Numbered from the stretch's first letter, positions 3,601 to 34,300 are shown. The stretch is DNA of 36,077 nucleotides from Candidatus Poribacteria bacterium (GCA_012270875.1 JAAXHI010000454.1:827-36903), one strand, 5' to 3'. Made by a program: numbers and translations. The notes: generated by a model from the sequence alone, not told the origin.

Positions 3601-3704
3601 CTCTCGCCATCAATAACAACAGACTTTATGTTGTTACCTCACAGCGTGGGTTATTTCACATCTCGCTTGATGAGAAATTGCACAATGTCTCAACCAATGA
3701 ATAG
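627..3704 (+). CDS. ECF sigma factor fused through a TM helix to an extracytoplasmic Asp-box/BNR beta-propeller (divergent paralog)
   Basis: Region 2 AEEITQDTFLQAY..FAGWLYVIA; region 4 LPDSERTVVTLYY..EIGKFLGVSVHTITSRLQRAR; hydrophobic PWAAFGAAAVLIALLLG; repeated S-x-D-x-G-x-[TS]-W motifs. Confidence 0.92.
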   Translation: MKQENDAQLIDDILSGDTTAFNILVEKYQKSVHALVWRKIGDFHYAEEITQDTFLQAYKKLSTLKNPNLFAGWLYVIANRLSFKWLREQKPVPQSLETIPVNEVEASSYTRYVSEQRDINTTENRRELVQKLLEKLPDSERTVVTLYYLSEMTTKEIGKFLGVSVHTITSRLQRARKRLQRDEERLVQEVLGGVHVSARLSENIMREVGKIETTSPPVSKPLLPWAAFGAAAVLIALLLGTSNRYLARFQKPYSFEAQSEPTIEIIDTLVTLDIDAKPDVRNQIGQAAFPGKSNSTGLQTSETSLAATVGVDAAKFSTSRWRQVSGPQQGPAYGIFTTPEGTLHVSTQTGIYRLPTGETAWARINANRPISWGYMPMAAYRDTLYSVSTNEIFTSSDDGETWHVFCPRPSGRTVGLVVTDAPQSTRSRTAVTMYLALRDKGVFQSTDAGTEWNLLNEGLTNKRIYRIAAIENTVFVGTNEGLYRLNAGVWEELSVDPSKTAQSFENFGDKTPANTDSGVYRLSSGIWEQVPIEFVNAIHCLTAFENNLYVGMGPDLSMWAGSTKSELAELGVIVNVNSVQGKIFHSADLGKSWTEITPQDKPLFFTVLTGIKLLVVGETLLARGIEQFRSTDAGRTWTQLDTASGLSPLDSRRIVAADERVFYTIGGNGVYRTTDAGDSWHLFMDGIMGTGIRSLIAFNNRLCAYTGSDIVQSTDGGESWEKIPVDAGDSFMLSYGSKLRVSDGNLYGIASEARNLRIFGLSGDGNTLVLTQKSPNLDEETLSTESWKTLAAAERIRLPDDLEENPALTKTLRSMMTVARVSGFAVSGGTFYVEYLRRLFKWKLGDLEWTDTGLIDLTQKSASSQGGYGFKLAASGETVYVGKRDGKLFQSFDGGDSWRDITLILPLRFTYFKEIVFVGPTVYVATDTGVLASQNGEHWRVLTDEMGQRPVIDKFAVDGTTVYGAGDAGVYRLGNRGKWEQVSSSVPGKVISLAINNNRLYVVTSQRGLFHISLDEKLHNVSTNE

Positions 3705-10028: not shown

Positions 10029-10074
10029 GGTGTTAATCCGAGATGACGAACGCTCCTTTCCCATGGGATAATTG

Positions 10075-13000: not shown

Positions 13001-13164
13001 ACGGTTTTATCAAAGACACAGGTATCTATCGTTTGGAAAGCGGCACTTGGGAACAGGTTGTCTCAGAAATGCCGGATCATGTAGAGGGGTTCGCCGTTGG
13101 CGAGAATACCTTATACGTGAACACGCGGGACAGCAATGTGCTCCATTTCAACCTCGAAAAATAA
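10075..13164 (+). CDS. ECF sigma factor-TM-Asp-box/BNR beta-propeller fusion
   Basis: MKNDDAQLIQRVLAGD start shared with paralogs (ATG 10075). Region 4 EMSSAEIGAFLGVSANTVRSRLRRA, TM PWAIGVSTLAVVLLMLG, RSTDxGxxW repeats. Confidence 0.93.
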   Translation: MKNDDAQLIQRVLAGDETAFSTLVKKYQKSVHALAWRKVGDFHIAEEITQDTFLKAYQRLSTLKEPQRFLSWLYVIATNLCKAWLRKKRLRTQSLENTESIALEKAAYSGYVISENEQTAIEAQREAVKKLLAKLQESERTVVTLHYFSEMSSAEIGAFLGVSANTVRSRLRRAQQRLKREEPMIREALENFQITPNLTENIMCEISRLKPVAPSGSKPFAPWAIGVSTLAVVLLMLGIGNQQLSRFQKPYDFNAASEMTVEIIEAPIVLNLDSKPDVQTQIGNSTTLSSNGGSGQQPDDILFAAAQADGENISTPKQEWIQAEPLKGSDATALSVTPDGELYTVADERIYKIGSGGKMWQQITDINALGVNYMWTARIEKWNDTLYLSVSNALLASKDNGKTWELVHSFPIDYGLFAFDLELTPQAFYIIFSDSTAFRSEDLGKTWKAMNVVGFPERPNAMVVFQDTLFAGTGNGLYRLKDNNWERVDFPVPVGETLSIATTEGKIYVAAKFNQDRTSSQRVRQGQARGWWIFRSTDFGDSWDDITPTNAWQVMGLPPEIKLVATGETLLAMERGMVRSTDSGDTWLPRQLPGTSPPMDRFSSAVVVNDNTIYIGSSDGLYRSTDAGISWNAVNINRQNRSGIYNLTAYTGQNTPPTLYAMFGGEIVKTTNKGKSWRTIQMGTPMTAPDREKPPTFTQIREFGGSVYAKTMGSRGPGNAHKTGLYRISADGNTVMPIQDVPLFDSQELSRFWNIGRTGALDVSDKSFIEQLKENFKGADQFFKTLARGGTFNQQELLRQPLYQDQYRLIRRGISGAFAVSDDTFYVEYNFKLYRWKPGETEWYDTGVQETGELLYREAMKAFEGIGMPEVKIDEVLSTWRGFTLAVSGNTVYVGKRDGHLVASFDMGNNWLDLTSALPFPVKAFKTIVFVGSTVYVATDAGVAASDDGKQWHPVTNASGTCLNMGQLTVAGDTLYGFIKDTGIYRLESGTWEQVVSEMPDHVEGFAVGENTLYVNTRDSNVLHFNLEK

Positions 13165-13366: not shown

Positions 13367-16300
13367 ATGAAAACCACTGATGTTGAGCTCATCTATCGCG
13401 TTCTTGATGGCGACGATACCGCTTTTACTGTGCTTGTGAAAAAATATCATAAACCGGTTCACGCGCTCGTGTGGCGGAAGATTGGGGATTTCCATATCGC
13501 CGAAGAGATTACGCAGGATACATTCTTAAAGGCATATCAGGAGTTAGCAACGCTGAAGAAACCGCAGAGTTTTGCGAGTTGGCTCTATGTGATTGCTGCC
13601 AACAACTGTAGTACGTGGTTGCGTAAAAGGCGTTTATCGACGGAACCATTTGAAGATGCCCGCCTACAAGAGGCGACGTATTCCGGGTATGTCGTTGCCG
13701 AAAACGAGCGGACAGAAGCAGAGGCACAACGCGAAGTCGTCAAAAAGTTGCTTGCGAAACTCCAAGAGAGTGACCGCACGGTTATCACGCTGCATTACTT
13801 CGGTGAGATGTCCAGTGCGGAGATCGGCGCGTTTTTAGGGGTATCGGCAAACACGGTGAGGAGCCGTCTCCGCCGCGCACAGCAACGTTTGAAAAGGGAG
13901 GAACCGATGATACGAGAAGCATTAGAGAATTTCCAAATCACACCAAACCTTACAGAAAACATTATGCGCGAGGTTTCGCGTCTGAAACCTACTGCGCCAT
14001 CAGGTGGCAAACCGTTGGTGCCGTGGGCGATGGGTGTTTCCGTATTAGCAGTCGTCTTTTTGATATTCGGTATCGCAAACCATCAATCCTTATCGCGTTT
14101 CCAGAAGCCTTACAGTTTCAACGCTGCTTCAGAGTTGAAGGTTGAGTTGATTGACGCTCCGGTTGTGCTAAATCTTGAAGCCGAACCCGATAACCGCACG
14201 CAGCTCGGAAATGCCAACGCGCAGGATAAGAGCAATGGCGTTGGTAACCAAGTTGATGATACCGCGCCGTTTGACTTGGAAACAATCATCAGGAAAATAA
14301 AGCACTACGATAATGCTGTCACCTCCGTAACCGGTGATTTCATCATGGAAAGACAGAGTGGCTTGGGGATCTCGAAAAGAGAATACACACTGACGTTTGC
14401 AGGCGAGAAAGTCCGAATGGATCAGGAACAGGATCATACTCGCGTCCAGCTTTGGGATGGAAAACGACATTGGGAAGCACGCGAAGATAGAAGGATGATC
14501 TTTGAATTTGAAATTGCACCCGGCAAGGAAAAGACAGATATTGAGACGATTCGACAGGCATTCAAACATAACGGTATTGATCTCGCGGACGATGTACGCA
14601 TCGTTGATGACGACGAACCCCAAGATTTCACACTTATTGAAAACGAGACAGATCAAAAATACTATTTCTGGTTGGAGGGAGAGACGACGCTGTTGGTTTA
14701 TGACCTTAATCATCTTCAATATGATGTTCGACCTGGGTGGACAGGTAGTGCTGACAATGATCCGCGGTTTTGGCTCACCTTTCGTCCTGCTTCAAACAAT
14801 TCTTATCTATCCGAACCGCTGTGGTACTTGCTTGAGCAACATGAGAGTGAAATTATCGGGAATGAGATATTGAACGGAGACAAGACATCCGTGATTCGTT
14901 TGAATATACCAGCTCAGTCAAAAGGGGACTTCAAAAGACCTGCCCAGTCCGTTAAACTTTGGATTTCCCATGACAAAGGTTTCCGTCTGGTTAAGTTAGA
15001 AGAAAGTGCCTATACTATAGATAACCGGTCAGCGGGGCTCGGTTTCAAAGCGGGTGTAACCTATATTTCAAGCCGAGAAATTGCGTATCACGAATATCTA
15101 CCGGATGTCTGGTTTCCTGAGAGAATTGAGATATCTATTGCTCCTGTGTCATCACCGGACCAACAAGAGAAAGGTGAACCTGTACTCAAAAAGGTTCTAC
15201 TCACAAAGCAGTGTCGATTAAACACTGATGTCACAGGGTTGCTGGATTTAGGTCTACCGCTTGATACATCTATTTTCGATTACGGAACTGGTAAACCGAG
15301 TACAGTCGGCGATGTGTTAAATCCTGTATCGAAACCAGATATTCGGAAACTCTTCGGAAGTTCCGCTATGCCGGTTAAAAGCGATGGATCTGACCAACAC
15401 ACCTATAATCCATCTGTGTTTGACTTGGAAGCGATCATCACACAGATGAAGCACGCTGATAGTTCTGTCGTTTCCGCAAGCGGCAACTTCGTCATTGAAC
15501 ACCATAGAAAGCCGGGAATCGCGAAAACTGAGTATGCCTTAACGTTTGAAGGTGATGGAATCCGAGTAGAACGAGGATGGGGTTCCCCGCTTGCAGTAAA
15601 AGATTATCCACGCCTCAAAAAGGTTTTTCCGTCTGTTGAACTCGACGATGGAGAACGGCGATGGGAGATATATAAGTACAAAAAACACCTCTTTAGCGTT
15701 GAGATCACACTCGATAAGAAGCAGACAGCTCTTGAAACAATTCGACAGGCGTTCAAACAGCAAGAGATAGCACTTGCTGACGATGTACGCATCGTCGCGA
15801 GTGAAGAACCGGAGAGTTACACGCTTATTGAGAACCAGACGGGTAAAACCTACTTCATCTTGTGGGAAGGCGAAACAACGCTGAAAGTTTATGACCTTCA
15901 ACATACCGAATATGGTATCCGCGATCCATTTCGACGCAAAGTTTCTGACCGTCGTTTCGAGAGTCCACTTCGCTATCAGTGGAATATGCTTGCTGATCTC
16001 GATCCGAGATATTGGCTCACGTATCCAAGTGCTGGTGGAAGGACCTATCTCACAGAACCGCTTTGGCAGCTCCTTGAGAAGCACGAGAGCGAACTCTTGG
16101 GTAGTGAAGTTTTGAACGGTGATGAGACTTCAGTTATTCGTCTAAAGTTACCTGATGAGTCCCTTATCATCTGGATTTCTCATGAGAAGGGTTTTCGTCC
16201 GGTTAAGCTGCAAAGAGCATTTCCGCTTGAGAATCATCCGGTGGATATTATCGCAATGAAGTACTTCCAGTCGGGTGTGAACTATATAGAGACACGGGAA

Positions 16301-16810
16301 ATTGATTATCGCGAATATTTACCCGATGTCTGGTTTCCCAAGAAGATTGAACGGTACTTTACACCGATCGCAGCAGCAGATCTGCCACACGTCGCTGAAA
16401 TCATCCTAAAGACTGTGATTCACACGAAGCAGTGTCGGTTAAACACGGATGTTGCTGAGTTACTCCGTTTAAACCTGTCGCCTGATACACCTGTTCTCGG
16501 TTTAAAACCAGACGACGATACACCAATAGCGGAAAAAGTGGCATATTTACGTCAAGAAATCCCGCGTATCCTTAAACACCGCCTTGACTTAGAGAAACTG
16601 GATGATGAAATTGCTGAGTCTTACGGGGAAGACCCAGATCTTACCTTACTAAGGGATCAAGCTGCAGATGAAGCATTCGCACTGAAAGGGACTATCAGCC
16701 TTTTAACTTTAGACTACATACGATTTGCCGCGGATTCCTCAGCTCTTAAACCGGGCGGAGATTTTTATGAACTGTTGGAGAAAAACGGCATTTTTTATGA
16801 TTTTGAATAA
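13367..16810 (+). CDS. ECF sigma factor-TM fusion with a tandemly duplicated extracytoplasmic domain of about 380 aa (possible LolA/RseB-like fold)
   Basis: ECF regions 2 and 4, then TM. Repeats start FDLETII (14270) and FDLEAII (15419); each contains DPRxWLT, YLxEPLW, WISHxKGFR and EYLPDVWFP. Confidence 0.9.
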   Translation: MKTTDVELIYRVLDGDDTAFTVLVKKYHKPVHALVWRKIGDFHIAEEITQDTFLKAYQELATLKKPQSFASWLYVIAANNCSTWLRKRRLSTEPFEDARLQEATYSGYVVAENERTEAEAQREVVKKLLAKLQESDRTVITLHYFGEMSSAEIGAFLGVSANTVRSRLRRAQQRLKREEPMIREALENFQITPNLTENIMREVSRLKPTAPSGGKPLVPWAMGVSVLAVVFLIFGIANHQSLSRFQKPYSFNAASELKVELIDAPVVLNLEAEPDNRTQLGNANAQDKSNGVGNQVDDTAPFDLETIIRKIKHYDNAVTSVTGDFIMERQSGLGISKREYTLTFAGEKVRMDQEQDHTRVQLWDGKRHWEAREDRRMIFEFEIAPGKEKTDIETIRQAFKHNGIDLADDVRIVDDDEPQDFTLIENETDQKYYFWLEGETTLLVYDLNHLQYDVRPGWTGSADNDPRFWLTFRPASNNSYLSEPLWYLLEQHESEIIGNEILNGDKTSVIRLNIPAQSKGDFKRPAQSVKLWISHDKGFRLVKLEESAYTIDNRSAGLGFKAGVTYISSREIAYHEYLPDVWFPERIEISIAPVSSPDQQEKGEPVLKKVLLTKQCRLNTDVTGLLDLGLPLDTSIFDYGTGKPSTVGDVLNPVSKPDIRKLFGSSAMPVKSDGSDQHTYNPSVFDLEAIITQMKHADSSVVSASGNFVIEHHRKPGIAKTEYALTFEGDGIRVERGWGSPLAVKDYPRLKKVFPSVELDDGERRWEIYKYKKHLFSVEITLDKKQTALETIRQAFKQQEIALADDVRIVASEEPESYTLIENQTGKTYFILWEGETTLKVYDLQHTEYGIRDPFRRKVSDRRFESPLRYQWNMLADLDPRYWLTYPSAGGRTYLTEPLWQLLEKHESELLGSEVLNGDETSVIRLKLPDESLIIWISHEKGFRPVKLQRAFPLENHPVDIIAMKYFQSGVNYIETREIDYREYLPDVWFPKKIERYFTPIAAADLPHVAEIILKTVIHTKQCRLNTDVAELLRLNLSPDTPVLGLKPDDDTPIAEKVAYLRQEIPRILKHRLDLEKLDDEIAESYGEDPDLTLLRDQAADEAFALKGTISLLTLDYIRFAADSSALKPGGDFYELLEKNGIFYDFE

Positions 16811-19043: not shown

Positions 19044-21881
19044 ATGAAAAACAGTGATGTTCAACTTATCCAACGCGTGCTTGATGGCGATGATACGGCG
19101 TTCTCCGCACTCGTGAAAAAATATCAGCGATCTGTTCATGCGCTTGCGTGGCGGAAGGTCGGAGATTTCCACATCGCCGAGGATATCACACAAGAGACGT
19201 TCCTAAAAGCGTATCAGGGACTCTCTACGCTAAAGGAACCACAGTCCTTTGCGAGTTGGCTCTATGTGATAACGGCGAACCGTTGTAATACTTGGCTGCG
19301 TAAGAAACGTTTACGGACGCAGTCGTTGGAAGACACAAGCAGCACACAGTTAGAAAAAGCGACGTATTCTGGATATGTCATTGAAGAAAACGAGCGGATG
19401 ACGGTCGAAACACAACGCGAAGTCGTCAAAAAACTACTCGCAAAATTAAAAGAAAGCGATCGGACTGTCATCACGCTTTATTACTTCGGGGGAATGACGT
19501 ACGAAGAGATCAGCAAGTTTCTGGGTGTATCGGTAGGTGCGATTAAAAATCGTGTTTACCGTGCTCAAGAACGTCTGAAGAAGGAGGAACCGATGATACG
19601 AGAGGCTTTAGAGCATTTCCAAATCACACCGAGCCTTACGGACAACATCATGCAAGAAATCTCACGTTTGAAACCTGTTGCGCCATCAAGCAGTAAACCG
19701 TTAATTCCATGGGCGGTAGGTGTTTCCGCGTTGGTCGTCGTGTTTTTGATGTTGGGGGTCGGGACGCAATACTTATCGCGTTTCCAGAAACCTTACAGTT
19801 TCGATGCTGCAGCTGAGATGACAGTTGAGCTCATTGAAGCACCCGTCGTGCTAAACCTTGAATCTAAACCGGATGTTCGGACGCAGTTGGGGAATGTCAG
19901 CACGCCGAGCAAAAGCGATACCGCCAATCAGCATCCTAACGAGGTTTCAGCATTGGTCGCTGAATCACAAGCAGATAATACGGTTAATAAAGACTATTCA
20001 CAAGGGGAACTGCCGAAAGAGGCGAAAGCACGGTTCGGAAAAGGTGGTATTAATACGATCCAGTTTTCACCGGACGGCACGCAACTTGCAGTTGGAAGTG
20101 ACATCGGTGTATGGCTGTACAATGTTGAAACAGGTAAAGAGGAGTCTCTGTTTGCAGGGATGTGCCATACGCTTGCATTTTCACCCGATGGTCGCTTCTT
20201 GGTGAATAGCGGTGGCATGTTTCGCGGGCAGGAACTCCAATTGTGGGACATGGCTGCTGCCCGTAAGGTCCCCCTCATTGGTGGACCCTTTGCCGGATCT
20301 GCATTGCAGTTTTCTGAAGATAGCAAAACACTCATCAGTTTAGGTAACTTCGGGGACAGACTTTTCCGGTTAGATGTTGAAAGTGGACAAGGAAATGTGC
20401 AGAAGACCGAAGCAGAATTTGGTATGGGGAGACCTTATCCTGAGGTCTTCGCACTCACATACGATAAAATTGCGATTGGATGGGATGATGGGAAAATACA
20501 GTTGTGGGATCCAAAAACGGGTAAAGCGTTATCGACGCTCGACGGACATGCAATGCCAGCGGATATGTCGGATGATAAAAAAGTCTTAGCATTAGCATTT
20601 TCACCCGATGGTACTCGCCTTGCCAGTGGAAGCAAGGATAAGACGGTGCGCTTATGGGATCTCACCAACGCCGACGACGGGATTATCCTTCAAAAACATA
20701 CCGGATGGACAAATGTGTTAGTGTTTTCGCCGGACGGGAAAATGCTTGCTAGTGGGAGTGTCGATAAAACAGTGCAGTTGTGGGATACTGCCACGGGTGA
20801 GTCACTCGCGACATTGACTGGCAATACCAGTAGTATTAATGCGCTAACGTTTTCACCTGATAATAGTGTGCTTGTAAGCGGAGGGGCGGATGGCACTCTC
20901 CGATTTTGGAATACAGAAACAGGAGTTTCGCTACCGCTCCATATCATAGGACACATGGCATCGATGAGAGCAGCGACTTTTTTTCAAGGTAGTTCCACGC
21001 TTGTAGGTGTAGCATTTAATGGGGAAATTACCTTTTGGAATCTGAAAACGCCGCATAAGTCTATTGTTCATACGGCAGGCCATCGAGATTTGTTCCCGAC
21101 TTTAGCGTTTTCACCGGATGGTACGAAACTCGCCAGTGTTGGTGCCGAGGGCAGCATAATCTTCGGTGTACGCGGTATCGCCAGTTGGTGTCCAGATTCT
21201 TTGATTCGTTTGACGGATGTCAGCACGGGGAACGAATTGGCGACCCTTACAGATATTGGAGTCCCTTCAAACCTGACTTTTTCGCCTGATGGAAAAATAG
21301 TAGCCTTTAGTAGTCACGGTAAAATTAGCTTGTGGAATACAGAAACAGGGATTTTAGTTGATACCTTTCTTCCGCCCGCGAGTGCTTTGGCATTCTCATC
21401 AGACGGGAAAAAACTCGTTACTGGCACTAAGGAGGGAGATGTTGAGATGTGGAATGCGGAAACCGGGGTTGCGGTAACTTCCTCTATAGAACTTGATGGT
21501 TTTAGCAATACTGTAGCACCTATCAGAGCCTTGGTATTCTCTCCAAATGGTACGCTGCTTGCTGTGGCAAAGGATGAAGGCATTTATTTGTTGGGAAGTA
21601 ATAAAGAAATTCATCTTAAAGAAAGGCACCACCGTGGTGGCAGAACGTTAGCGTTTTCGCCAGATAGTACTGTATTTGTTGTTGGACTTAGATATGGCAA
21701 CATTGAGTTATGGGATTTGATAAAGGGAAACAAACTTACTACACTCAATGGACATACAGAAGAAGTGAAGATGTTAGCATTTTCACCTGATGGTCAAACG
21801 CTTGTCAGCACAGGAGAAGATGGCACAATTCTCTTGTGGGATTGGGATGAAATCCTCACAGGTTCATCTAAAAACGAATAA
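19044..21881 (+). CDS. ECF sigma factor-TM-WD40 repeat fusion
   Basis: ECF regions 2 and 4 (GMTYEEISKFLGVSVGAIKNRVYRA), TM, then LPKEAKARFGKG and many AFSPDG..LASGSxDKTVxLWD repeats. Confidence 0.93.
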   Translation: MKNSDVQLIQRVLDGDDTAFSALVKKYQRSVHALAWRKVGDFHIAEDITQETFLKAYQGLSTLKEPQSFASWLYVITANRCNTWLRKKRLRTQSLEDTSSTQLEKATYSGYVIEENERMTVETQREVVKKLLAKLKESDRTVITLYYFGGMTYEEISKFLGVSVGAIKNRVYRAQERLKKEEPMIREALEHFQITPSLTDNIMQEISRLKPVAPSSSKPLIPWAVGVSALVVVFLMLGVGTQYLSRFQKPYSFDAAAEMTVELIEAPVVLNLESKPDVRTQLGNVSTPSKSDTANQHPNEVSALVAESQADNTVNKDYSQGELPKEAKARFGKGGINTIQFSPDGTQLAVGSDIGVWLYNVETGKEESLFAGMCHTLAFSPDGRFLVNSGGMFRGQELQLWDMAAARKVPLIGGPFAGSALQFSEDSKTLISLGNFGDRLFRLDVESGQGNVQKTEAEFGMGRPYPEVFALTYDKIAIGWDDGKIQLWDPKTGKALSTLDGHAMPADMSDDKKVLALAFSPDGTRLASGSKDKTVRLWDLTNADDGIILQKHTGWTNVLVFSPDGKMLASGSVDKTVQLWDTATGESLATLTGNTSSINALTFSPDNSVLVSGGADGTLRFWNTETGVSLPLHIIGHMASMRAATFFQGSSTLVGVAFNGEITFWNLKTPHKSIVHTAGHRDLFPTLAFSPDGTKLASVGAEGSIIFGVRGIASWCPDSLIRLTDVSTGNELATLTDIGVPSNLTFSPDGKIVAFSSHGKISLWNTETGILVDTFLPPASALAFSSDGKKLVTGTKEGDVEMWNAETGVAVTSSIELDGFSNTVAPIRALVFSPNGTLLAVAKDEGIYLLGSNKEIHLKERHHRGGRTLAFSPDSTVFVVGLRYGNIELWDLIKGNKLTTLNGHTEEVKMLAFSPDGQTLVSTGEDGTILLWDWDEILTGSSKNE

Positions 21882-22250: not shown

Positions 22251-22289
22251 CAGAATTGTGAAACTTTTTAATGACTCGTCGCGTCACTA
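22251..22289 (+). promoter_or_regulatory. Putative ECF promoter CAGAATTGTGAAAC-N17-CGTCACTA
   Basis: Conserved motif. TGAAAC..CGT resembles classical ECF promoters. Extended -10 TGCTATAAT further upstream at 22122-22130. Confidence 0.78.
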
Positions 22290-22334
22290 AGGGTTGATGT
22301 AAAGTAATGAACATTCCCTGTCCAGAGGTATCCG

Positions 22335-25331
22335 ATGAAAAATGACGATGTTCAGCTCATTCAACGCGTCCTTGAAGGCGATGATACGGCGTTCTCCACA
22401 CTTGTGAAAAAATATCAGCGATCTGTTCATGCGCTTGCGTGGCGGAAGGTCGGAGATTTCCATATTGCCGAGGATATTACACAGGATTCGTTCCTCAAAG
22501 CGTATCAGCGACTCTCTACGTTGAAGGAGCCACAGTCCTTTGCGAGTTGGCTGTACGTCATCACCGCAAATCAGTGTAAAGCGTGGATTCGGAAGAAACG
22601 GACGTGGATTCAGTCGTTGGAAGACACAAGCAGCGTACAGTTAGAAAGAGCGACCTACTCTGGACATATCATTGCGGAGAACGAGCAGATGACAGAAGAA
22701 GCACAACGTGAAGTCGTCAAGAAACTACTCGCCAAATTACAAGAAAGTGACCGAACGGTCATTACGCTCTATTACCTCGGGGGAATGACGTATGAAGAAA
22801 TTAGCAATTTTTTAGGTGTATCGGTAGGTGCGATTAAAAGTCGGCTTCACCGAGCAAGGCAGCGCTTAAAAAAGGAGGAACCGATGATTAGAGAGGCTTT
22901 AGGCAATTTCCAAATTACGCCGAATCTTACCGAGAATATCATGCAAGAAATCTCGCGTCTGAAACCGATTGCACCATCAGGTAGCAAACCGATTGTGCCG
23001 TGGGGAATCATAGGTGTTTCCACAATAGCAGTCGTCTTTTTAATATTAGGTGTTGGCACGGAGTACTTATCGCGTTTTCAAAAACCGTACAGTTTTGATG
23101 CGACATCAGAAATGATGGTTGATATTATTGAAACGCCAATCGTATTAGATATTGAATCGAAACCCGATGTCCGGACGCAACTTGGCAGCACTACCGCGCT
23201 CAGTAAAAACGATGGTGCCGGTCAGCAACCTGATGAGGTCTTATTTGCTGCTGCACAAGCAGAAGGAGAGGACGTTTCTGTCCCGAAACAGCAGTGGATC
23301 CGGGCAGGACCGATCAAAGGAAGTAGAGCAGAAGGTTTACTTGCGACATCTGAGGGTGAGTTTTACACTTTTGCTGATATGCAAATTTACAAATTAGAAA
23401 CCGATGGAAAAAAGGGGCGACACATCTTTGATTTTAGGTCCCTGGTAAATTCTCGTCCGCCAGCTGCACCGCTCGCAAAGTGGAAAGACACCCTCTACAT
23501 TATGCTGGCAAACGAACTTCTTGCTTCAAAGGACGACGGTCAGACATGGAATTTGGTACACACTTTGCCAGCCGTACATTACTTTGCGATTGGTTTGATA
23601 CTAACGGATCAAGCGTTCTATGCCGCTTTTGAGGACGGTATTTTCCGTTCTGAGGACCTTGGCAAAACGTGGAAGGCAATAAACGATGGATTAATGATGG
23701 GGGATATGGGGTATATCCGTTCTATCGTCAATATTCAAGACACATTGTTTGCTGGGACCAGCAACGGACTCTACCGCCTCAGTGCTGACAGTTGGCAACG
23801 TGTGGCGTTTCCAGTATCCGTTGGACGGATCCGTTCAGCTGCAGCGACTGAAGAGAAACTTTACGTTGTTGCGGAGATGGCTGATACGGATCCTCGTAAA
23901 GTTTCCAGGGGGCTGCAGCGGGCTTGGTCAATATTTCGCTCAACTGATTTGGGGAGTTCGTGGGACGATATTACACCAACAAACGCTTGGGCAGTAAAAG
24001 GATGGCCACCCTCTATTAAACTTATTGCTGCTGGCGACACACTTTTAGCGATGGAACAAGGGATGGTGCGCTCTACCGATGGTGGAAACACGTGGCTGCC
24101 CACACAATTACCCGGGACATCCCCTACAATGAATGCTGATGTAGACGTTGCGATAGCAGTAAACGACGTTTTTTATGTTGGGAGTTGGCGTAGTGGACTC
24201 CATCGTTCTACCGATGCTGGCAAATCGTGGAACATCGTAAACATCACGCCGGATACAGGTCAAATAGGTAATCTCATCGCGCATAGAAAAAACAACACAC
24301 CTCTGACGCTCTACGCGAGATATGAAGAAGAAAAGGTCGTAAAAACCACTGATAGAGGTAAGTCTTGGAAGACCGTTCAAATAGAAATGCCGATGACAGT
24401 GCCTCGCAGAGAAAGCATACCAAGTATTACCCATATCGTCAAAGCCGATGGTAAAATCTATGCCAAAGGTGGCGATGTGCTTGGTAGAGGAAAGACGCGA
24501 ATATATCGCGTATCTACAGATAGCAATTCGCTTGTTCCGATACAAGGCATGCCGATCTTTGACGGAATGCCTTTAACGTTCGAGTCAAGTCGAATAAGGG
24601 GAATGAGAAGGGACGGGGCTAACTTGTCAGATGCCTCAGTCATTGAGCAGTTGCGAGAAAAGGCTCCTGGTGCGGACGAATTCTTCAGGCAGTTGGTAGA
24701 ATGGGATCCTCTACAGCCAGATGTCTATATACAATTAGGGTTCCGTAGGGGGGCGTTTGCTGTTAGTGGCGACACGTTCTACATGGAATACAACTATAAA
24801 CTCTTCCGATGGGAACCCGGTGATACTGAATGGTACGACACCGAACAGGAAGCAACCGTTGAACTGTCTCTGGGCTTAGCATCCAGAAAGCTTAAGCTCG
24901 CGACTTCAGGGAACACCGTCTACGTCGGCAAACGGGATGGGCACCTCGTGGTCTCGTTTGATAAAGGAAACAATTGGATTGATCTCACGCCGATCTTACC
25001 CTTTCCCATCAAAGCCTTTTATGATATAGTGTTTGTGGGTTCCACGGTATATGTAGCAACGGATGCGGGTGTCGCTGCATCAAGTGATGGCAAACAGTGG
25101 CGTGCGATCACCGATGCAACGGGCACGCCTCTTATTATCGGGCCGTTGGCAGTTGATGGCACAAACGTTTATGGTGTTTCCAAGTCAGGTGTCCATCGGT
25201 TGGAAAACGGCACATGGAAAGAGGTTATTTCAGAGAGACCAAATAGCATGACCTCGCTTGCTGTTGATGGGAACATGTTGTACGTCGGCACGCAGGACAG
25301 CGGGGTGCTGCATTTCAATCTTGACGAATAA
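22335..25331 (+). CDS. ECF sigma factor-TM-Asp-box/BNR beta-propeller fusion
   Basis: Region 4 GMTYEEISNFLGVSVGAIKSRLHRA. Sensor closely related to 10075 (WDDITPTNAW, VYVGKRDGHLV). Confidence 0.93.
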   Translation: MKNDDVQLIQRVLEGDDTAFSTLVKKYQRSVHALAWRKVGDFHIAEDITQDSFLKAYQRLSTLKEPQSFASWLYVITANQCKAWIRKKRTWIQSLEDTSSVQLERATYSGHIIAENEQMTEEAQREVVKKLLAKLQESDRTVITLYYLGGMTYEEISNFLGVSVGAIKSRLHRARQRLKKEEPMIREALGNFQITPNLTENIMQEISRLKPIAPSGSKPIVPWGIIGVSTIAVVFLILGVGTEYLSRFQKPYSFDATSEMMVDIIETPIVLDIESKPDVRTQLGSTTALSKNDGAGQQPDEVLFAAAQAEGEDVSVPKQQWIRAGPIKGSRAEGLLATSEGEFYTFADMQIYKLETDGKKGRHIFDFRSLVNSRPPAAPLAKWKDTLYIMLANELLASKDDGQTWNLVHTLPAVHYFAIGLILTDQAFYAAFEDGIFRSEDLGKTWKAINDGLMMGDMGYIRSIVNIQDTLFAGTSNGLYRLSADSWQRVAFPVSVGRIRSAAATEEKLYVVAEMADTDPRKVSRGLQRAWSIFRSTDLGSSWDDITPTNAWAVKGWPPSIKLIAAGDTLLAMEQGMVRSTDGGNTWLPTQLPGTSPTMNADVDVAIAVNDVFYVGSWRSGLHRSTDAGKSWNIVNITPDTGQIGNLIAHRKNNTPLTLYARYEEEKVVKTTDRGKSWKTVQIEMPMTVPRRESIPSITHIVKADGKIYAKGGDVLGRGKTRIYRVSTDSNSLVPIQGMPIFDGMPLTFESSRIRGMRRDGANLSDASVIEQLREKAPGADEFFRQLVEWDPLQPDVYIQLGFRRGAFAVSGDTFYMEYNYKLFRWEPGDTEWYDTEQEATVELSLGLASRKLKLATSGNTVYVGKRDGHLVVSFDKGNNWIDLTPILPFPIKAFYDIVFVGSTVYVATDAGVAASSDGKQWRAITDATGTPLIIGPLAVDGTNVYGVSKSGVHRLENGTWKEVISERPNSMTSLAVDGNMLYVGTQDSGVLHFNLDE

Positions 25332-25352
25332 TAGAAATCAATATATCTTACC

Positions 25353-25380
25353 TGGGCGGTGCAACAATACCGCCCATTCT
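25353..25380 (+). terminator. Probable terminator hairpin
   Basis: TGGGCGGT-gcaacaat-ACCGCCCA-TTCT after the stop codon. Confidence 0.6.
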
Positions 25381-25529
25381 CTCCGTATTCAAATCCTCAA
25401 TAATTTACGCAAATATTTACACGCCCTTTCCAGATCAGATGCGCTTTTAGCTGCATTTGTGGTATAATATTTTGATATAAGTGAGAATTGCTTGGATTGT
25501 GCCTACTACGGCTTAAGGAGGGAACCCCC

Positions 25530-27860
25530 ATGATTTGCGACGCTTTAGACAATATTCAATTCATGCCAAATGCTACACAGCGCGTAGGACGTGAAATGCT
25601 ATGTACCAAATCTACTAAACTGTTAGTGTCATGGACAATCGCTGCTTTGATGGTGATTGTGCTGCTGATGCAGACACATCAGGTCTTAGCCAACCAAGAG
25701 GACTATACCCGATGGGGATTACCTAAAGGTGCCAAAGCACGGATCGGGAAAGGTGTGTTCACTGATATGCAGCTATCACCGGATGGCACGCGTTTGGCGA
25801 TTGCGAGTTCCGCAGGTGTCTGGCTTTATGATGTCAGTACAGGGGATGAGATTGCGCTTATCACGGAGAATACGACTCTCATCGGACAGGTCGCCTTTTC
25901 TCCTGACAGTACAACGCTTGCGACTGCTGGTGGGGACAACAAATGTCAAATCTGGGATGTTGAAAGTCGGACACTTCTACTGACATTCAAGATGCCTGAT
26001 TATTGGATCAAGACATTGGCATTCATGGATGACGGAAAAACCCTCGTCGGCGAAGGGATAATTGACAAAATCTCACACCCTCTGTTGGGGGGTGGACCTT
26101 GGATGTGGGATGTTCCCAAGGTCTGGATGTGGGATATCCAGACTGGAAAGCAGTTAGATACTTTCACCACTGAACTGCCGAGATTCAATCCGATGAAAGA
26201 TGTGCGGTCCAGTGTCATGGTAAAGGCATTTGCCAATAACGATCGTGTTATATTTGCCTTTGAGAATAAAGACGGAACGATTAGCGTCAAAGATGGACGC
26301 ACTAACCGCGAAGTAGCTGTGCTTCCCAATCTTAATGACGAGGTAAAAGCGTTCGGTTTTTCACCAGATGGTAAAGGGGTTGCCATTGCGACTTCAAGGG
26401 ACGTACATCTCTGGGACCTTGAGACAGGAGAACAGATACTAACATTTCCAAAGCAGGTTGCAGATTTCTATGGAAATCCGTCTATACTGGCATTCTCAAA
26501 AGATGGAAAAACGCTTGCCGTTGCGGGTTTAGACGACATTGAGATATGGAATATGGATACGCATTCGCATGTTGCTACACTTAAAAATACAGATGGCGGT
26601 TTGTGGGAATTTGTGTTATCAAGGGACGGCGCAACCGTCATCACTATGAATCACCACGGCAGGGTAGATTTGTGGTCGGCACAGACCGGCAAACATGAAC
26701 GCACCTTGACGATAGGATATACGAATAGATTCTCCAAGTTGGCGTTCGCGCCCGATGGGAAAACGATTGCGAGTAGCACGGGTAGCAAAGTTCACCTGTG
26801 GGATACAAACACTCGGACTGAAAGATTGCGGATGCAACTGCCCGGACGCATTGAAAATGAAAAAAAACGGGTTGAACCGGATTTGCGAGCCGCTGTGCCG
26901 ATAGAACGTGGAAGTGAAATCATCGGCTTAGCGTTTTCTGAATATAACACACCGCTCGCTGCTGCCGCGTATAGCAAAACTCTCGTCGCTTTTACCGTTT
27001 CCGGCAAAGTTGAAATATGGGATGTCGCTACTGGAGAATATAGTGCCGATTATACCCTCGCGGACATGCCTCGTAAAGGGATGCCAGGGCTGTTAGCACC
27101 CGATTTGACTGCTGTGCCAACGCCTCGGACCCCGGGAATATATCACCTCTTCGCAACACCGTTTGAGAGATCAGGTCACGCCTTGTATGCAGCTGCCTTT
27201 TCACCAGATGGTGAAAAACTAACTGTTAAAAATCGGGACGACGTGATGGAGATATGGGATGTTCTGACCCGTAGACGCTTATGCACACTCCCAGATCGCT
27301 CTCCAAACAAGAGTGCCGCGTTGGCATCTACGTTGGCATTCACACCGGATGGCGAAGTGCTTGCGATTGGTGAAGGTGCGGATGTCCATCTGTCACATAC
27401 GGATACAGGTGAAACGTTTGCCATATTCAGCGTCTCTCAGGAGAAACCGAATGCGATAGATAAATTACAAGGATTGTTCGACTCGCAGCGTTTTGATGTA
27501 TCGGTCGGTGCCGTAGCATTAGCGCGCCCTGGAAAACTTCCGGCTGTTGCTGCGAGTGGAGGCAAGACAATTTATTTTTGGAACATCGCAAAGCGGGAAC
27601 CTATTACGCTCAAAGAACATACAAGTGAAGTCTGTAAACTGGCGTTCACACCCGACGGCACTGTTCTGGCAAGTGGTGATGTTGATGGGACAATTCACTT
27701 GTGGTCGCTGCCCGCAGGAGACAAAATTGCCACATTCAATCCGTATGTGAGTCCCGTTAGTCAGTTAGTTTTCTCACCTGATGGAAAAACTCTTGCAAGC
27801 ACAAACCTACATTCTCGTTTTGCTGGAACGATACTCCTTTGGGACGTTCCACCCAAGTAA
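25530..27860 (+). CDS. Membrane-anchored or secreted WD40 protein; sigma-less paralog of the ECF-WD40 fusions
   Basis: AAGGAGGG RBS before ATG 25530. N-terminus MICDALDNIQFMPNATQRVGREM..KLLVSWTIAALMVIVLLM aligns with the ECF linker + TM. EDYTRWGLPKGAKARIGKG then WD40 repeats. TGGTATAAT at 25460-25468. Confidence 0.88.
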   Translation: MICDALDNIQFMPNATQRVGREMLCTKSTKLLVSWTIAALMVIVLLMQTHQVLANQEDYTRWGLPKGAKARIGKGVFTDMQLSPDGTRLAIASSAGVWLYDVSTGDEIALITENTTLIGQVAFSPDSTTLATAGGDNKCQIWDVESRTLLLTFKMPDYWIKTLAFMDDGKTLVGEGIIDKISHPLLGGGPWMWDVPKVWMWDIQTGKQLDTFTTELPRFNPMKDVRSSVMVKAFANNDRVIFAFENKDGTISVKDGRTNREVAVLPNLNDEVKAFGFSPDGKGVAIATSRDVHLWDLETGEQILTFPKQVADFYGNPSILAFSKDGKTLAVAGLDDIEIWNMDTHSHVATLKNTDGGLWEFVLSRDGATVITMNHHGRVDLWSAQTGKHERTLTIGYTNRFSKLAFAPDGKTIASSTGSKVHLWDTNTRTERLRMQLPGRIENEKKRVEPDLRAAVPIERGSEIIGLAFSEYNTPLAAAAYSKTLVAFTVSGKVEIWDVATGEYSADYTLADMPRKGMPGLLAPDLTAVPTPRTPGIYHLFATPFERSGHALYAAAFSPDGEKLTVKNRDDVMEIWDVLTRRRLCTLPDRSPNKSAALASTLAFTPDGEVLAIGEGADVHLSHTDTGETFAIFSVSQEKPNAIDKLQGLFDSQRFDVSVGAVALARPGKLPAVAASGGKTIYFWNIAKREPITLKEHTSEVCKLAFTPDGTVLASGDVDGTIHLWSLPAGDKIATFNPYVSPVSQLVFSPDGKTLASTNLHSRFAGTILLWDVPPK

Positions 27861-27949
27861 AACCGACCGCGTCATGGGTAACACCAAATCAGAAAGATAA
27901 AGTCACATTATAGAGATTTTGGAACGCTATGAGGTATCGGTCTGTAAGA

Positions 27950-28003
27950 GCGCAATAATGCACGTCGCATTTGGGCGAGTACGCCGCAGAATTGCGCTAC
28001 TAC
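27950..28003. repeat. REP-like stem GCGCAAT..ATTGCGC-TACTAC enclosing dispersed repeat copy 2
   Basis: GCGCAAT 27950-27956 pairs with ATTGCGC 27991-27997; the inner 31 bp match 417-447. Confidence 0.75.
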
Positions 28004-28059
28004 GAGCGGGTTTTTCCTTAGTGAGAGGCGTTTATTTAGAAATGGTATAATCATTATTG

Positions 28060-28099
28060 CAGAATTATGCAACCGTTTTCCGCCTAAGTCGCGTCACTA
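28060..28099 (+). promoter_or_regulatory. Putative ECF promoter CAGAATTATGCAAC-N18-CGTCACTA
   Basis: Conserved motif. It lies inside the ORF-track extension 28057-28143, which supports ATG 28144 as the true start. Confidence 0.75.
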
Positions 28100-28143
28100 A
28101 GAGTCAATGTGGAATATTGAACTCCCTATTTTGGAGAAGTCTG

Positions 28144-29754
28144 ATGAAAAACGACGATACCCGACTGATTCAATGCGTCCTTGCCGGCGATGATACTGCT
28201 TTTGCTGAGCTTGTGAAAAAGTACCAGAAGCCGGTTCACGCGCTTGTGTGGCGGAAAGTTGGTGATTTCCACGTCGCCGAGGAAATTACACAGGACACCT
28301 TCCTGAAGGCATACCAGAAACTGACGACGCTCAAGGAGCCGCAGCGTTTTGTGAGTTGGCTTTATGTAATAGCCACGAACCGTTGCAAGGCATGGCTGCG
28401 TAGGAAACGTTTATGGATGCAGTCGTTGGATGCCACGAGTAGTAGGCAGTTGGAAAAGGCTACATATTCTGAATATGTCATTTCGGAGAACGAACGCGTA
28501 ACAGTAGAAACACAGCGCGAAGTCGTCAAAAAGCTGCTTGCGAAGTTACAGGAGAGTGAGCGGACAGTCATGACACTCCACTATTTCGGGGAGATGACGT
28601 GTGAAGATATTAGCAAGTTTTTGGGTGTATCGGTAGGTGCGATTAAGAGTCGGCTCAGGCGTGCGCGCCACCGCTTAAAGAAGGAGGAACCCATGATACG
28701 CGAGGCTTTAGAACATTTCCAAATCACACCGAATCTGACAGAGGATATCATGCGCGAGGTTTCGCGTCTGAAACCGATTGCGCCGTCTGGTAGCAAGCCG
28801 TTCGTGCCGTGGGCAATCGGCGTTTCTACGTTAGCAGTCATCCTTTTGATGTTAGGTGTCGGAAACCGTCAATACCTGTCGCGTTTCCAAAAATCGTATA
28901 GTTTTGATGCGACTTTAGAGATGAGCGTTGAACTCATTGATGCACCGATTGTGTTGAATCTTGAATCCAAACCTGATGTTCGGACGCAGCTCGGCAATGC
29001 TGCCACCCCCAGTAAAAACGACGGGTTCAGTCAACAACTCGATCAACCAGAACATACAACCCTATTTGCTGCCGCGCAGGTAGATCAAACTGAGAAACCT
29101 ACTGTTACTGATAAAGGTAATCGCTACATCATCCTTGAGACAAGCACCCATGAGGAAGGTGGAGAAGTTTTTGCGAGCGGAAGTTTTTCTTTTACGAGAA
29201 CAGGTGAGATTTTGACAGTTACAAAGGCTGGAACTACCGGGACCGGTAAAGGTGACGCAACCCCGATGTACGTGTTGATGAGTTATATTCTCAACCATAA
29301 TATTGACCTTTTCAAGTTCCCTTTGGTTATAGGAGATACTTGGACACAGAAAGGTCCCTGGGCCCCACACATACAGACGACCTTAGTGGGTTATGAAAAG
29401 GTAGAAGTTGCCGGAGGGACTTTCACGGACTGCCTTAAGCATGAAACGCTTTTTACAAACGCGAGGGTAGGTGCTGGCACGCGTTATTTGTGGTTTGCCA
29501 AAGGGGTTGGTGTCGTTAAAATGCGCTATGAACATTCCAACGGTGTCACCACTGAAGCAGAATTGCTTAACTACAATGTTCCGAAAGGCGAAGAATATCT
29601 CCCTTTGCAATACGGTAATATGTGGACCTACAGATTGCAAAACGAGTCTCAAGAAAAACCGATTATTGAAAAGTGCGAGGTTGTCGAAAATAGCGATCAG
29701 CCCTTAGATTCTGTCGATTCTTATTTTTTTCTCACGCTCCTCCAAAAGCTCTGA
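28144..29754 (+). CDS. ECF sigma factor-TM fusion, 5' part; appears to continue by a -1 frameshift at T7 (29724-29730) into the next ORF
   Basis: MKNDDTRLIQ start with GGAGA RBS, ECF regions 2 and 4, TM, then a domain with VEVAGGTFTDCLK..WFAKGVGVVK. Ends with a short tail after the T-run. Confidence 0.88.
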   Translation: MKNDDTRLIQCVLAGDDTAFAELVKKYQKPVHALVWRKVGDFHVAEEITQDTFLKAYQKLTTLKEPQRFVSWLYVIATNRCKAWLRRKRLWMQSLDATSSRQLEKATYSEYVISENERVTVETQREVVKKLLAKLQESERTVMTLHYFGEMTCEDISKFLGVSVGAIKSRLRRARHRLKKEEPMIREALEHFQITPNLTEDIMREVSRLKPIAPSGSKPFVPWAIGVSTLAVILLMLGVGNRQYLSRFQKSYSFDATLEMSVELIDAPIVLNLESKPDVRTQLGNAATPSKNDGFSQQLDQPEHTTLFAAAQVDQTEKPTVTDKGNRYIILETSTHEEGGEVFASGSFSFTRTGEILTVTKAGTTGTGKGDATPMYVLMSYILNHNIDLFKFPLVIGDTWTQKGPWAPHIQTTLVGYEKVEVAGGTFTDCLKHETLFTNARVGAGTRYLWFAKGVGVVKMRYEHSNGVTTEAELLNYNVPKGEEYLPLQYGNMWTYRLQNESQEKPIIEKCEVVENSDQPLDSVDSYFFLTLLQKL

Positions 29755-29825
29755 GGACTATACCTGATTTATCTGAAAAAGTTTCAATAATTATAGAGGA
29801 CATACGGATCGGTTTCAGTGAGGTA

Positions 29826-31289: not shown

Positions 31290-34200
31290 ATGAAAAACAA
31301 CGATGTTGCACTTATTCAACGAGTTCTCGCTGGTGATGAAACCGCTTTTGCTGAACTGATAAAAAAATATCAAAAGCCAGTTCACACGTTGGCGTGGCGA
31401 AAAATCGGGGATTTTCATATCGCTGAGGACATCACCCAGGAGGTCTTCCTGAAAGCGTATCAGAGACTCCATATCCTGAAAGATCCGAACCAGTTTTCTG
31501 GATGGCTTTATGTGATTACGGCGAACTTATGTGCCACATGGCTCCGCAAAAAACGGATACAGACGCAACCGTTGGGGGACACAGAACCAACGATGATACA
31601 AGAAGATACTTATTCTCGACATGTTGTAGAAGAGCGAATGAAAACCACAGCGGAATCACAACGCGAAGTCGTCAAAAAGCTGCTGGCGAAGTTGAAAGAG
31701 AGTGAACGCACAGTGATGACGCTCCACTACCTTGGTGAGATGACGGTTGCAGAAATTAGCCGATTTTTAGGCGTATCGGCGAGTACCATTAAAAGTCGTT
31801 TGAGACGGGCACGAAACCGTTTAAAAGAGGAGGAGCCGATGATTAGAGAAGCACTTGAGCATTTCCAAATTACACCGAATCTTACAGAGAATATCATGCA
31901 AGAGATATCGCGGTTGAAACCGGTTGCACCGTCAGGCAGTAAGCCGTTAGTGCCGTGGGCAATGGCTGCTTCTACAGTAGCAATCGTCCTTTTGATGTTC
32001 GGCATGGGAAATCAGTATATGTCGCGTTTCCAAGAGCCGTATAGTTTCGACGCGCCATCAGAGATGACAGTTGAGCTCATTGAAGCACCCCTTGTGCTGA
32101 ACCTTGAGGTCTCCAAACCCGATATTCGGACGCAACTTGGGAGTGTTCGCACACCGAACGAGGGAAAGATCTCCAACCAGCAGCCTAACGACGTTTCGGC
32201 ATCGGCTGCAGAAGCCGAAGCAGATGAGAGAATTAAAAACTACGCGCATTGGAAGCTGCCCAAAGCCGCAAAAGCACGTTTCGGAAAAGGTGGGATTACC
32301 ACAATTCAGTTTTCACCGGATGGAACCCTACTCGCAGTGGGTAGTAATATCGGGGTATGGCTGTATGATGTGGCAACAGGTGAGGAGAAATTTTTGTTTG
32401 GTAGTGGAATGTGTGAAGCCCTCCAATTTTCACCTGATGGCCGTTTCCTTACTGCTTCTTCTGAGGAGACGCTCATCCAATTATGGGAGATCGCTACCGG
32501 GCGCGAAGTGCCGCTTATTGATTTGTACGGAGAAGCTTCCGTATTGCGATTCTCTTCAGATGGGAAAACGCTGATCGGTTTGTATAGTGATGGGCATGCT
32601 GCGATTACGCGATTGAATATTGAGAGCGGTAAAGGGAAAACAAAACACCTTAAAACTGGGTTATTCGGGATCGGTCTCTTGAGTTGGGAGGATTTTAGTG
32701 GTGTTTACGCGATGACGGGCGATAAAATCGCGATTGGCAAACCGGACGGGACGATTCAGTTATGGGACGTAGCAACCCGTAAAAAGTTATCGACGCTCAG
32801 AGGACACGTAGATTTGCCGCTTCAGCCGTTAGATAAACTTGTGCATCGCAAACGTCCGTTTAGCAGACGGATTTTAGCAGTGGCGTTTTCGCCGGATGGT
32901 ACCCGTCTCGCCAGTGGTGGGGCAGATAATACAGTCCGATTGTCGAATCTCACTGGCGATCGAGATTCGATGACGTTGCAGAAACATACTGGACCGGCAA
33001 ATGTGCTGGCGTTTTCACCCGATGGAAAAATGCTTGCCAGCGGCAGTACCGATAAAACAGTGCAATTGTGGGACACCGCCACTGGCGAACCCCTCCTGAC
33101 GCTCACCGGCCATATCAACGGTATTACGGCGTTAGCATTTTCACCCGACGGTAACCACTCGTAAGCGGGAGTACGGATGGCACAATCCGATTCTGGCAGA
33201 CAGCAACTGGGGCTCCAGCAGATACCCTTATTACTGGACACACACAATCCATAAAAGCGGCGACCTTCTTTCAAGATCGTAATAGGGGCGAGGTGACCTT
33301 GAAGAAACACCCAAGCAAAAACCCCCTACTGGTAAGTGCGGCGTTTAACGGTGAAATTACCTTTTGGGATGTGGACGCAGCGCAGCGTAGGGACGAGGTG
33401 ACCACGCCCCTACGCCAAAATAGTGGACATCGGGATTGGTACTTAGCTTTAGCGTTTTCACCGGATGGCACGAAACTCGTCAGTGCAGGGACAGACGGTA
33501 CGAAAGTTTTCGGTGGGTTCCCTACTGGATTCTCTATTATTACGAAGCCAGATAATCTAACTCGGTTGACGGATGTATCGACTGGAGCCGAACTTGCGAC
33601 GTTGCAGCGAGGAAGCAGCAAACTTATCTTTTCTCCTGACGATAGAACTAAAACGGTGGCGATTACTTCGAGAGGTGCCATTCGCTTATGGAATACGGAA
33701 ACAGGCGATGAATTGGTCATTCCGATTCATGATGACCTACCCCTCGGCTTTCACCACAATGTGCCAACGGTTTTGGCAGTGGCGTTTTCGCCAGATGGTA
33801 GATGGCTTGTGAGTGGAACTACAGAAGGGGAAATCCGAATGTGGGACGTTGCGACCGGTGAAGCTTTGACCGTCTTTTCAGAACTGACAGAACCGATGGA
33901 ACAAGAGCATCTGAGGCATATTTCGGCATTGGCGTTTTCACCGGACCGCGCCTTGCTCGCTGCGGGTACACCGACGCAACTCCATTTATGGGACGTGCGT
34001 ACCGGTCATAAACTTTTTTCGGTTAGCACTGTGTATACACGCGGTTGGCGGACATACCATGATTATCCAAAACCGTTGGTGTTTTCGCCGGATAGTGCAA
34101 TTCTCCTCAGTGGGCATGGGGGCGGGACAATCCAATTATGGGATGCCAAGACTGGAGACAGCATCGCTGCGCTTGATGGGCATACACAGCAAGTGGAGAC

Positions 34201-34300
34201 GTTGAAATTTTCGCCTGATGGGGAAATGTTGGTTAGCACGGCACAGGATGGCACAATCTTTTTGTGGGATTGGGATGAGGCTATCACCGAATTACGTTAA
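31290..34300 (+). pseudogene. ECF sigma factor-TM-WD40 fusion split by a 1-nt deletion near 33156 (ORF-track pieces 31290-33164 and 33293-34300)
   Basis: After FSPDGN the WD40 text continues in the other frame as LVSGSTDGTIRFWQTATG, colinear with LVSGGADGTLRFWNTETG of 19044. Restored length about 1003 aa, ending DGTIFLWDWDE like 19044. Confidence 0.85.
33385..33415. repeat. REP-like palindrome inside the coding frame
   Basis: GCGTAGGG-acgaggtgaccacgc-CCCTACGC, encoding RRDEVTTPLR. Related TAGGGGCGAGGTGACCT..CCCCTAC at 33283-33329. Confidence 0.75.

Follow-up and report, generated by a model that had tools for sequence, protein, structure and literature searches.

The DNA considered here (the window) is a stretch of 36,077 nucleotides (nt) from Candidatus Poribacteria bacterium (GCA_012270875.1 JAAXHI010000454.1:827-36903); its genome of 5.74 Mb is referred to as G000, and 65 genomes of the genus were compared. 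Seven genes in the window (A to G) each encode an extracytoplasmic function (ECF) sigma domain, a linker of ~35 amino acids (aa), one transmembrane (TM) helix, and a large outside domain that is BNR/sortilin-like, WD40, or unassigned. Between E and F lies the gene examined here, an open reading frame (ORF) at 25530..27860 on the plus strand that encodes a product of 776 aa (the target). Its start codon corresponds to a Met that is internal to the neighboring ECF-sigma/TM fusions, to which it is homologous. The parts of the target and the positions of the fusions are collected in Table 1.

Table 1. Coordinates of the target, its predicted parts, and neighboring features in the window.
Feature	Position	Strand	Remarks
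Promoter module	25439..25468	+	ends in extended -10 box TGGTATAAT (25460-25468), 61 nt 5' of the ATG; no -35 match
5' leader	25487..25529	+	residual homology to last sigma region 4 codons (RLKE..P); carries the Shine-Dalgarno sequence
Shine-Dalgarno AAGGAGG	25515-25521	+	8 nt 5' of the ATG
Start and linker relic, residues 1-29	25530..25616	+	predicted cytoplasmic; 1-14 recognizable, 15-29 degenerate
Alternative start Met23 (MLCTKS)	25596..25598	+	weak Shine-Dalgarno
Hydrophobic segment, residues 31-47	25620..25670	+	homologous to the fusion TM helix (DNA profile); best Kyte-Doolittle window; model helix 33-49
V-L-A, residues 52-54	25683..25691	+	candidate signal-peptidase site right after the hydrophobic segment; spacer-deletion junction just upstream
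WD40 beta-propeller region, residues 58-776 and stop	25701..27860	+	about 14 blades
Hairpin, G+C-rich, 7-bp stem	25354..25375	+	after the stop of E; terminator-like; separates E from the target
Fusion gene A	627..3704
Fusion gene B	10072..13164
Fusion gene C	13367..16810
Fusion gene D	19044..21881
Fusion gene E	22335..25331
Fusion gene F	~28144..29754
Fusion gene G	31290..33164		broken

The target matched the Pfam family PF00400 with E=4e-38 (128.6 bits against a cut-off of 27) and PF25173 with a score of 179 against a cut-off of 154, and many further propeller models matched as well. No sigma model was present among the best 25 of 48 Pfam families for the 776-aa product, and no anti-sigma Pfam family was found for the target or the fusions (for the WD40 proteins, among the best 25 matches); Sigma70_r2/r4 was matched in the listed fusions E, C, F, and G. 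An AlphaFold2 (AF2) model of the whole protein, built from an alignment of eight rows, is all-beta with ~56 strands, consistent with two seven-bladed propellers, at low confidence (mean predicted local distance difference test score [pLDDT] of 58, and below 50 for linker relic residues 1-29). Six exact copies of GCGTCACT occur in the window, each 30-55 nt 5' of one of genes B to G, a number reached in none of 100 shuffles; the window search found no copy upstream of the target (25530) or of A. A preliminary description of this DNA held that a standalone WD40 gene begins exactly at the internal start, keeping AAGGAGG and the WD40 opener and lacking the sigma domain, the ECF promoter, and the RFQKPYSF segment. 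All of the elements said to be kept were found in place, and the absences agree with the Pfam results, the GCGTCACT count, and a gap in the alignment with a fused homolog that is described below.

Several lines of evidence tie the N-terminus of the target to the fusions. The in-frame codons ahead of its Met-Ile-Cys-Asp-Ala-Leu read RLKEGTP, and six fusions read RLK(K/E/R)EEP, with (A/G)GGAGGA(A/G)CC(G/C)ATG as the DNA at their K/R-E-E-P-M codons. The WD40 opener Y..W.LPK.AKAR.GKG is likewise common to the target and the fusions. A hidden Markov model (HMM) of the 35-aa linker, made from 10 fused paralogs, matched the target frame with E=0.004 in a search of all 70,990 six-frame segments of the G000 genome, and a linker-plus-TM model matched it with E=8e-6 in the same segments; in both searches every match ranked above the target was a sigma fusion. 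On the DNA level, an HMM of the fused paralogs aligned with 25487-25670 (E=4e-14 in a target of 801 bases), most strongly over codons 1 to 17 and, once more, at the start of the TM helix, with low posterior probability 5' of ~25510. Judged by these profiles, it is confirmed that the resemblance exceeds chance, and the N-terminal alignment on which the preliminary description leaned is significant for protein and DNA alike. Since homology to the fusions starts 14-45 nt 5' of the ATG in the orthologs introduced below, and perhaps 70 nt in G076, the target leader evidently is the tail of sigma region 4 and its Shine-Dalgarno (SD) sequence the former K-E-E codons. The remnant of region 4 in the DNA upstream of the target comprises the last ~14 codons at most.

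A search with target residues 1-200 at a cut-off of E<=1e-45 returned matches in nine of the 65 genomes, G000 included. In eight (G000, G038, G043, G050, G008, G076, G009, and G049) residues 1-200 are covered and the gene is sigma-less, with an N-terminus of M(I/V)(R/C)(D/N)AL in each; further sigma-less genes of the kind anticipated in the preliminary description thus exist, 8 of the 65 genomes carrying the target form with the same ATG and -10 box. The match in the ninth genome, G061, begins at target residue 48 and lies within a frame of 1025 aa that comprises sigma2-sigma4, a KKEEP-MIREAL linker, a TM helix, the RFQKPYSF spacer, NQVLANQ-EGYTRWGLPEDAKARIGKG, and the orthologous WD40 region. 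Target and G061 DNA share 80% identity in an alignment of 392 nt from 25678 on, and in the linker the identity is 72% (57 nt, E=0.001). Relative to G061, the sigma-less proteins show a single gap of 62-66 residues that opens where the TM helix ends and closes at NQVLANQ, and it is in this gap that the RFQKPYSF spacer of the target is missing. In none of the nine genomes do the fused and the sigma-less form occur together. This fused ortholog, along with the significant linker-plus-TM homology, bears out the earlier claim of a sigma-deleted sibling.

A quick maximum likelihood (ML) tree was made of 52 WD40 domains, with one contig-edge row relabeled as fused and four rows left out (two overlapping-locus duplicates, one fragment of 22 aa, and another at a contig edge). 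G061 groups with the eight sigma-less genes in a single clade (Shimodaira-Hasegawa-like approximate likelihood ratio test [SH-aLRT] support of 100), the sister of which is a clade of signal-peptide type (support 98) that includes, for example, G000:C494, G002, G015, and G050b. Fused and signal-peptide labels are interspersed on the tree, and the fused label requires six changes for eight rows, which suggests that WD40 domains have moved repeatedly between the fused and signal-peptide layouts through swapping of N-terminal modules. Examples of interleaved pairs are C455_12937 (fused) with C316_5207 (signal peptide) and C203 (fused) with C455_15822. Sliding identity between G000 and G038 revealed no sharp recombination breakpoint.

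The start of the target is conserved along with its frame. Met1 is encoded by ATG in all eight sigma-less orthologs, and its SD duplex, -12.6 kcal/mol in G000, is strong (<=-9.5 kcal/mol) in five of them. The linkers measure 84, 87 (four genomes), 90, and 102 (two genomes) nt, all multiples of three, with no stops in any of the eight, whereas the leaders, at 25, 53, 53, 59, 61, 61, 61, and 63 nt, are not confined to multiples of three; because insertions and deletions respect the triplet in the linker and not in the leader, the frame from Met1 has been kept. As judged from conservation, this shows that the SD sequence and ATG at 25530 are retained as a start. Translation from Met23 (25596), which would yield an ordinary Sec signal-peptide WD40 protein and make an untranslated leader of codons 1-22, is unlikely, even though the signal peptide would then have a canonical n-h-c order and the codons from 15 to the TM helix evolve in a near-neutral manner. 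Met23 is present in five of the eight orthologs (Met1 in all eight) but absent in G043, G050, and G009, the last of which lacks any further in-frame ATG before codon 40; the SD duplex at Met23 in G000 reaches -4.2 kcal/mol only; and a linker whose length differences are all multiples of three and which is free of stops is unlike a leader.

The promoter was also retained. TTT(G/A)TGGTATAAT is invariant in the eight orthologs, 25-63 nt 5' of the ATG, in keeping with the proposal that the gene has a promoter of its own; a sigma-70 promoter scan omits the module because its -35 element is below threshold. A second copy of the module in G000 (blastn; nhmmer E=5e-7) lies on contig C312, ~240 nt 5' of another ECF-WD40 fusion, and this copy and the G076 and G049 orthologs have 12 further bases in common after the -10 box. 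A derivation of the TGGTATAAT promoter from decayed region-4 coding DNA, hinted at by one nhmmer alignment in G076, was rejected as unsupported. An HMM of the eight leaders found in G000 only the target's own leader and the C312 copy, region-4 sequences not being among the significant matches. A search of sequencing runs listed no RNA run that contains this DNA, and three RNA runs that carry the label of the host organism gave 0 reads over 22000-30000, which constitutes no test of transcription.

Selection acts differently on the parts of the protein. Ratios of nonsynonymous to synonymous change (dN/dS; Nei-Gojobori, pooled over 28 ortholog pairs) are 0.24 for the WD40 part, where the proportion of synonymous differences (pS) is ~0.40, 0.53 for the TM segment, 0.34 for codons 1-14, and 0.92 for codons 15 to the TM segment. 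The WD40 part is thus under purifying selection, and linker residues 15-29 drift near-neutrally. Linker residues 15-28 have a mean identity of 82% among 12 fused G000 paralogs that differ in their outside domains, as against 39% among the eight sigma-less orthologs, in which one to four of the 14 positions match the fused consensus. These values bear on the suggestion in the preliminary description that the product is a trans-acting anti-sigma factor or decoy, with its linker binding paralogous sigma domains or its WD40 part titrating the ligand of a fused sensor. The linker relic does share homology with the stretch that joins region 4 to the TM helix, its first 14 residues are fairly conserved, and the gene lies within an array of six fusions with one common promoter motif. 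However, it is precisely the residues most conserved in the fusions that drift in the sigma-less orthologs, no anti-sigma domain is found by Pfam, the fused paralogs in G000 lack a WD40 domain resembling that of the target (the best match has 28.8% identity), and the two forms do not coexist in any of the nine genomes. Such a role therefore appears very unlikely. When the sigma domain of E (1-183) and the target tail (1-34) were modeled as a complex, the score was 0.01, which is neither support nor a verdict. The same description offered a secreted co-receptor as a second possibility, of which the "secreted" half is possible.

The charge distribution around the hydrophobic segment, basic before and acidic after, and the fact that the sigma domain is necessarily inside the cell in the fused relatives indicate that the WD40 part should lie outside the cytoplasm, in a predicted N-in/C-out topology. 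The hydrophobic stretch is 17 residues long, is preceded by an n-region of 30 aa, and is followed by QTHQ-VLA/NQ (the slash marks the candidate cleavage point), with L53 and A54 invariant in the eight orthologs. The VLA/NQ string had been considered a signal-peptide c-region acquired from a signal-peptide paralog; this was revised, since the spacer of the fused G061 protein ends in the same string, NQVLANQ. G000 has 27 standalone ORFs with the same WD40 opener, in most of which it stands directly behind a signal-peptide-like N-terminus. Together with the placement of V-L-A, these ORFs favor an exported WD40 protein, and the most likely product is a twin-propeller WD40 protein, exported or anchored in the membrane, that is uncoupled from transcription.

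Origin by deletion raises the question of whether the gene is a functionless remnant in decay. The ortholog in G008 (L017 / L003, G008:C1) has lost ~330 internal residues in frame, leaving a frame of 464 aa, and a sigma-less gene in G009 that is split from its sigma part by a repeat shows that such remnants arise. Against this, an open frame of 792-797 aa is retained in seven of the eight sigma-less species, a WD40 dN/dS of 0.24 is maintained at a pS of ~0.40, and the promoter and ATG are invariant, so that a pseudogene is a highly improbable explanation. The G008 leader is 36 nt shorter and has a weak SD sequence. The second G009 gene (L024:8890-11487, G009:C75; 799 aa) is an independent case just 3' of the target's ortholog. 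It starts at the same internal Met; retains linker, TM helix, RFQKPYSF spacer, and WD40 region in full; and is preceded by a region-4 relic of ~23 codons. A ~120-nt repeat, a miniature inverted-repeat transposable element (MITE) with 27 matches in G009, three of them full-length, is inserted exactly between its RL and KKEEPM codons. Its sister on the tree is an intact G076 fusion (support 99).

How far the internal start is used within intact fusions is a separate matter. At the aligned codon, the 33 linker-bearing fusions of G000 have 15 ATG, one GTG, and 17 codons for L, I, or V (seven of them TTG). The SD duplex averages -9.2 kcal/mol at the 16 ATG/GTG fusions, 9 of which are at or below -10 kcal/mol, and -3.4 kcal/mol at the other 17, none of which reaches that value (Mann-Whitney p=7e-5; the copies are related, such that the counts are not independent); among 3046 background internal ATGs, 0.46% reach -10 kcal/mol. 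The internal Met is therefore not universal in the fusions but is accompanied by an SD sequence where it is present. It might tentatively be proposed that the SD sequence and ATG at the boundary of region 4 and linker serve as a second start in intact fusions, each of which would then yield two products, a sigma-tethered sensor and a TM-sensor isoform without sigma. The standalone gene of eight species and the MITE-split G009 gene would, on that doubtful but conceivable proposal, represent this short isoform after it became fixed and took on its own role, such as that of a sensor partner or buffer. The preliminary description took the target as natural evidence that the internal start is usable; this holds insofar as the start carries a selected standalone gene, and internal initiation on full-length mRNAs is not thereby demonstrated.

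The gene is probably best explained as a sigma-deleted descendant of a sigma-WD40 fusion that is translated from Met1, exports its propellers, and carries a decaying linker relic with no anti-sigma role. The ancestor would have been a one-polypeptide sensor with the order ECF sigma, linker, TM helix, spacer, and WD40. The direction of change that we infer involves two losses. One would have removed the ECF promoter and the entire sigma domain, joining a sigma-70-type extended -10 promoter to the last region 4 codons, which would now serve as 5' leader and SD sequence; a simple model would be a deletion that begins just after a sigma-70-type promoter farther 5' and stops where region 4 ends. 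The other would have removed the juxtamembrane RFQKPYSF spacer of ~62-66 residues and brought the TM helix beside V-L-A and the first blade, shortening the hydrophobic stretch to ~17 residues with V-L-A/N-Q right behind it. Translation from the Met that is internal to the fusions, followed by N-in/C-out insertion, would place both propellers outside the cytoplasm, anchored or released, and the product would resemble in function the many WD40 paralogs with signal peptides that this genome encodes. Its output to transcription would have been lost, and the linker relic would be decaying instead of acting as an anti-sigma factor.

It should be noted that several observations weigh against this explanation or limit it. 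The dN/dS values that separate the two halves of the linker (0.34 and 0.92) pool non-independent pairs over 14-20 codons. Residues 1-14 (25530-25571) stay conserved, 7-11 of the 14 agreeing with the fused consensus, which a pure relic does not explain, and the near-neutral codons 15-29 would also fit an untranslated leader and a Met23 start in the five genomes that have Met23. The SD sequence at Met1 is weak in three of the eight orthologs (G043, G050, and G008). The fused gene of G061 lies outside any comparable fusion array and is therefore a homolog with the ancestral layout, not a positional ortholog; the ancestral status of that layout rests on homology and the region-4 relic, not on synteny. 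The branch that sets the sigma-less genes to one side has a support of 79 only in the quick ML tree. Signal-peptidase cleavage after A54, judged by eye, seems a little more likely than anchoring, and the AF2 model is, as noted above, of low confidence.

The surroundings of the target add some detail on the parent fusions. Their shared GCGTCACT element forms -10-like boxes at 10021, 13337, 18990, 22281, 28091, and 31235, each preceded by a -35-like stretch, CAGAATT..TG..AAC. Since six fusions have the same box, the paralogous sigmas may recognize one another's promoters. A sigma-70-like element lies farther 5' in several fusions, for example TGGTATAAT before F. The hairpin that follows E is kept at the G008 ortholog locus; it has no T-run and for that reason escaped a scan of the window. 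Gene G is split into ORFs at 31290..33164 and 33293..34300: the frame shifts near 33155, and the WD40 region runs on in another frame to ~33280. Its counterpart in G076 is a single intact frame (L025:10270-13194), and broken G reflects either pseudogenization or an error of assembly. Between 3758 and 8962 the window contains five tandem paralogs of ~340-390 aa with signal peptides and PD40 (TolB-like) repeats. A palindrome that resembles repetitive extragenic palindromic (REP) elements and contains CTACTACGAAC has 31 copies in G000, where ~2.7 are expected; copies lie at ~28000-28050 of the window and in the upstream region of L021, and related copies flank fusion genes in G061 and G009. No RNA family was found in the window with Rfam.

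Among known systems, IutY of Pseudomonas putida is described as an ECF243 sigma/anti-sigma hybrid that is released by regulated proteolysis (PMC8999054); IutY is also listed in PMC5411451. The parent family resembles it in that one polypeptide runs from an ECF sigma domain through a single TM helix to a C-terminal part outside the cytoplasm, but differs in its linker of ~35 aa, in which Pfam recognizes no anti-sigma domain, FecR-like or otherwise, and in an outside domain that is WD40, BNR, or other; the target differs further in having no sigma domain at all. ECF57 is reported to be enriched in Planctomycetes and to carry WD40-like repeats in a C-terminal extension (PMC8999054; PMC7826278), and the control discussed for it is conformational or by protein interaction, not by a TM-tethered sensor (PMC8999054). 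The parent family is like ECF57, as far as its description goes, in fusing an ECF sigma factor to WD40 repeats and in its many copies per genome; the target, again, has no sigma part. The signal-peptide WD40 paralogs share with the target a WD40 opener directly after a hydrophobic N-terminal segment and a small-x-small motif, without a sigma domain. Unlike them, the target begins with an extension of 30 aa that stems from the fusion linker, and the homolog of its hydrophobic segment is the TM helix of the fusions rather than the signal peptides of these paralogs. A limited literature search found no description of sigma-less derivatives of ECF fusions.

Single-polypeptide sigma-TM fusions are hugely expanded in this marine genus: a query of region 4 plus linker gave 4-83 matches per genome in all 65 genomes, a total of 2586. 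The target amounts to a natural deletion experiment in such a family, in which the part 3' of region 4 has persisted for long as an independent, selected gene by means of an in-frame SD sequence and ATG, and this natural deletion series shows the module to be separable. With the sigma domain lost, the conserved linker helix is no longer constrained, which suggests that the helix functions in cis with sigma. The gene also documents traffic between WD40 proteins that are secreted and WD40 sensors that are fused to sigma. For annotation it carries a warning, in that alignment with a fusion linker alone does not make a gene an anti-sigma factor.

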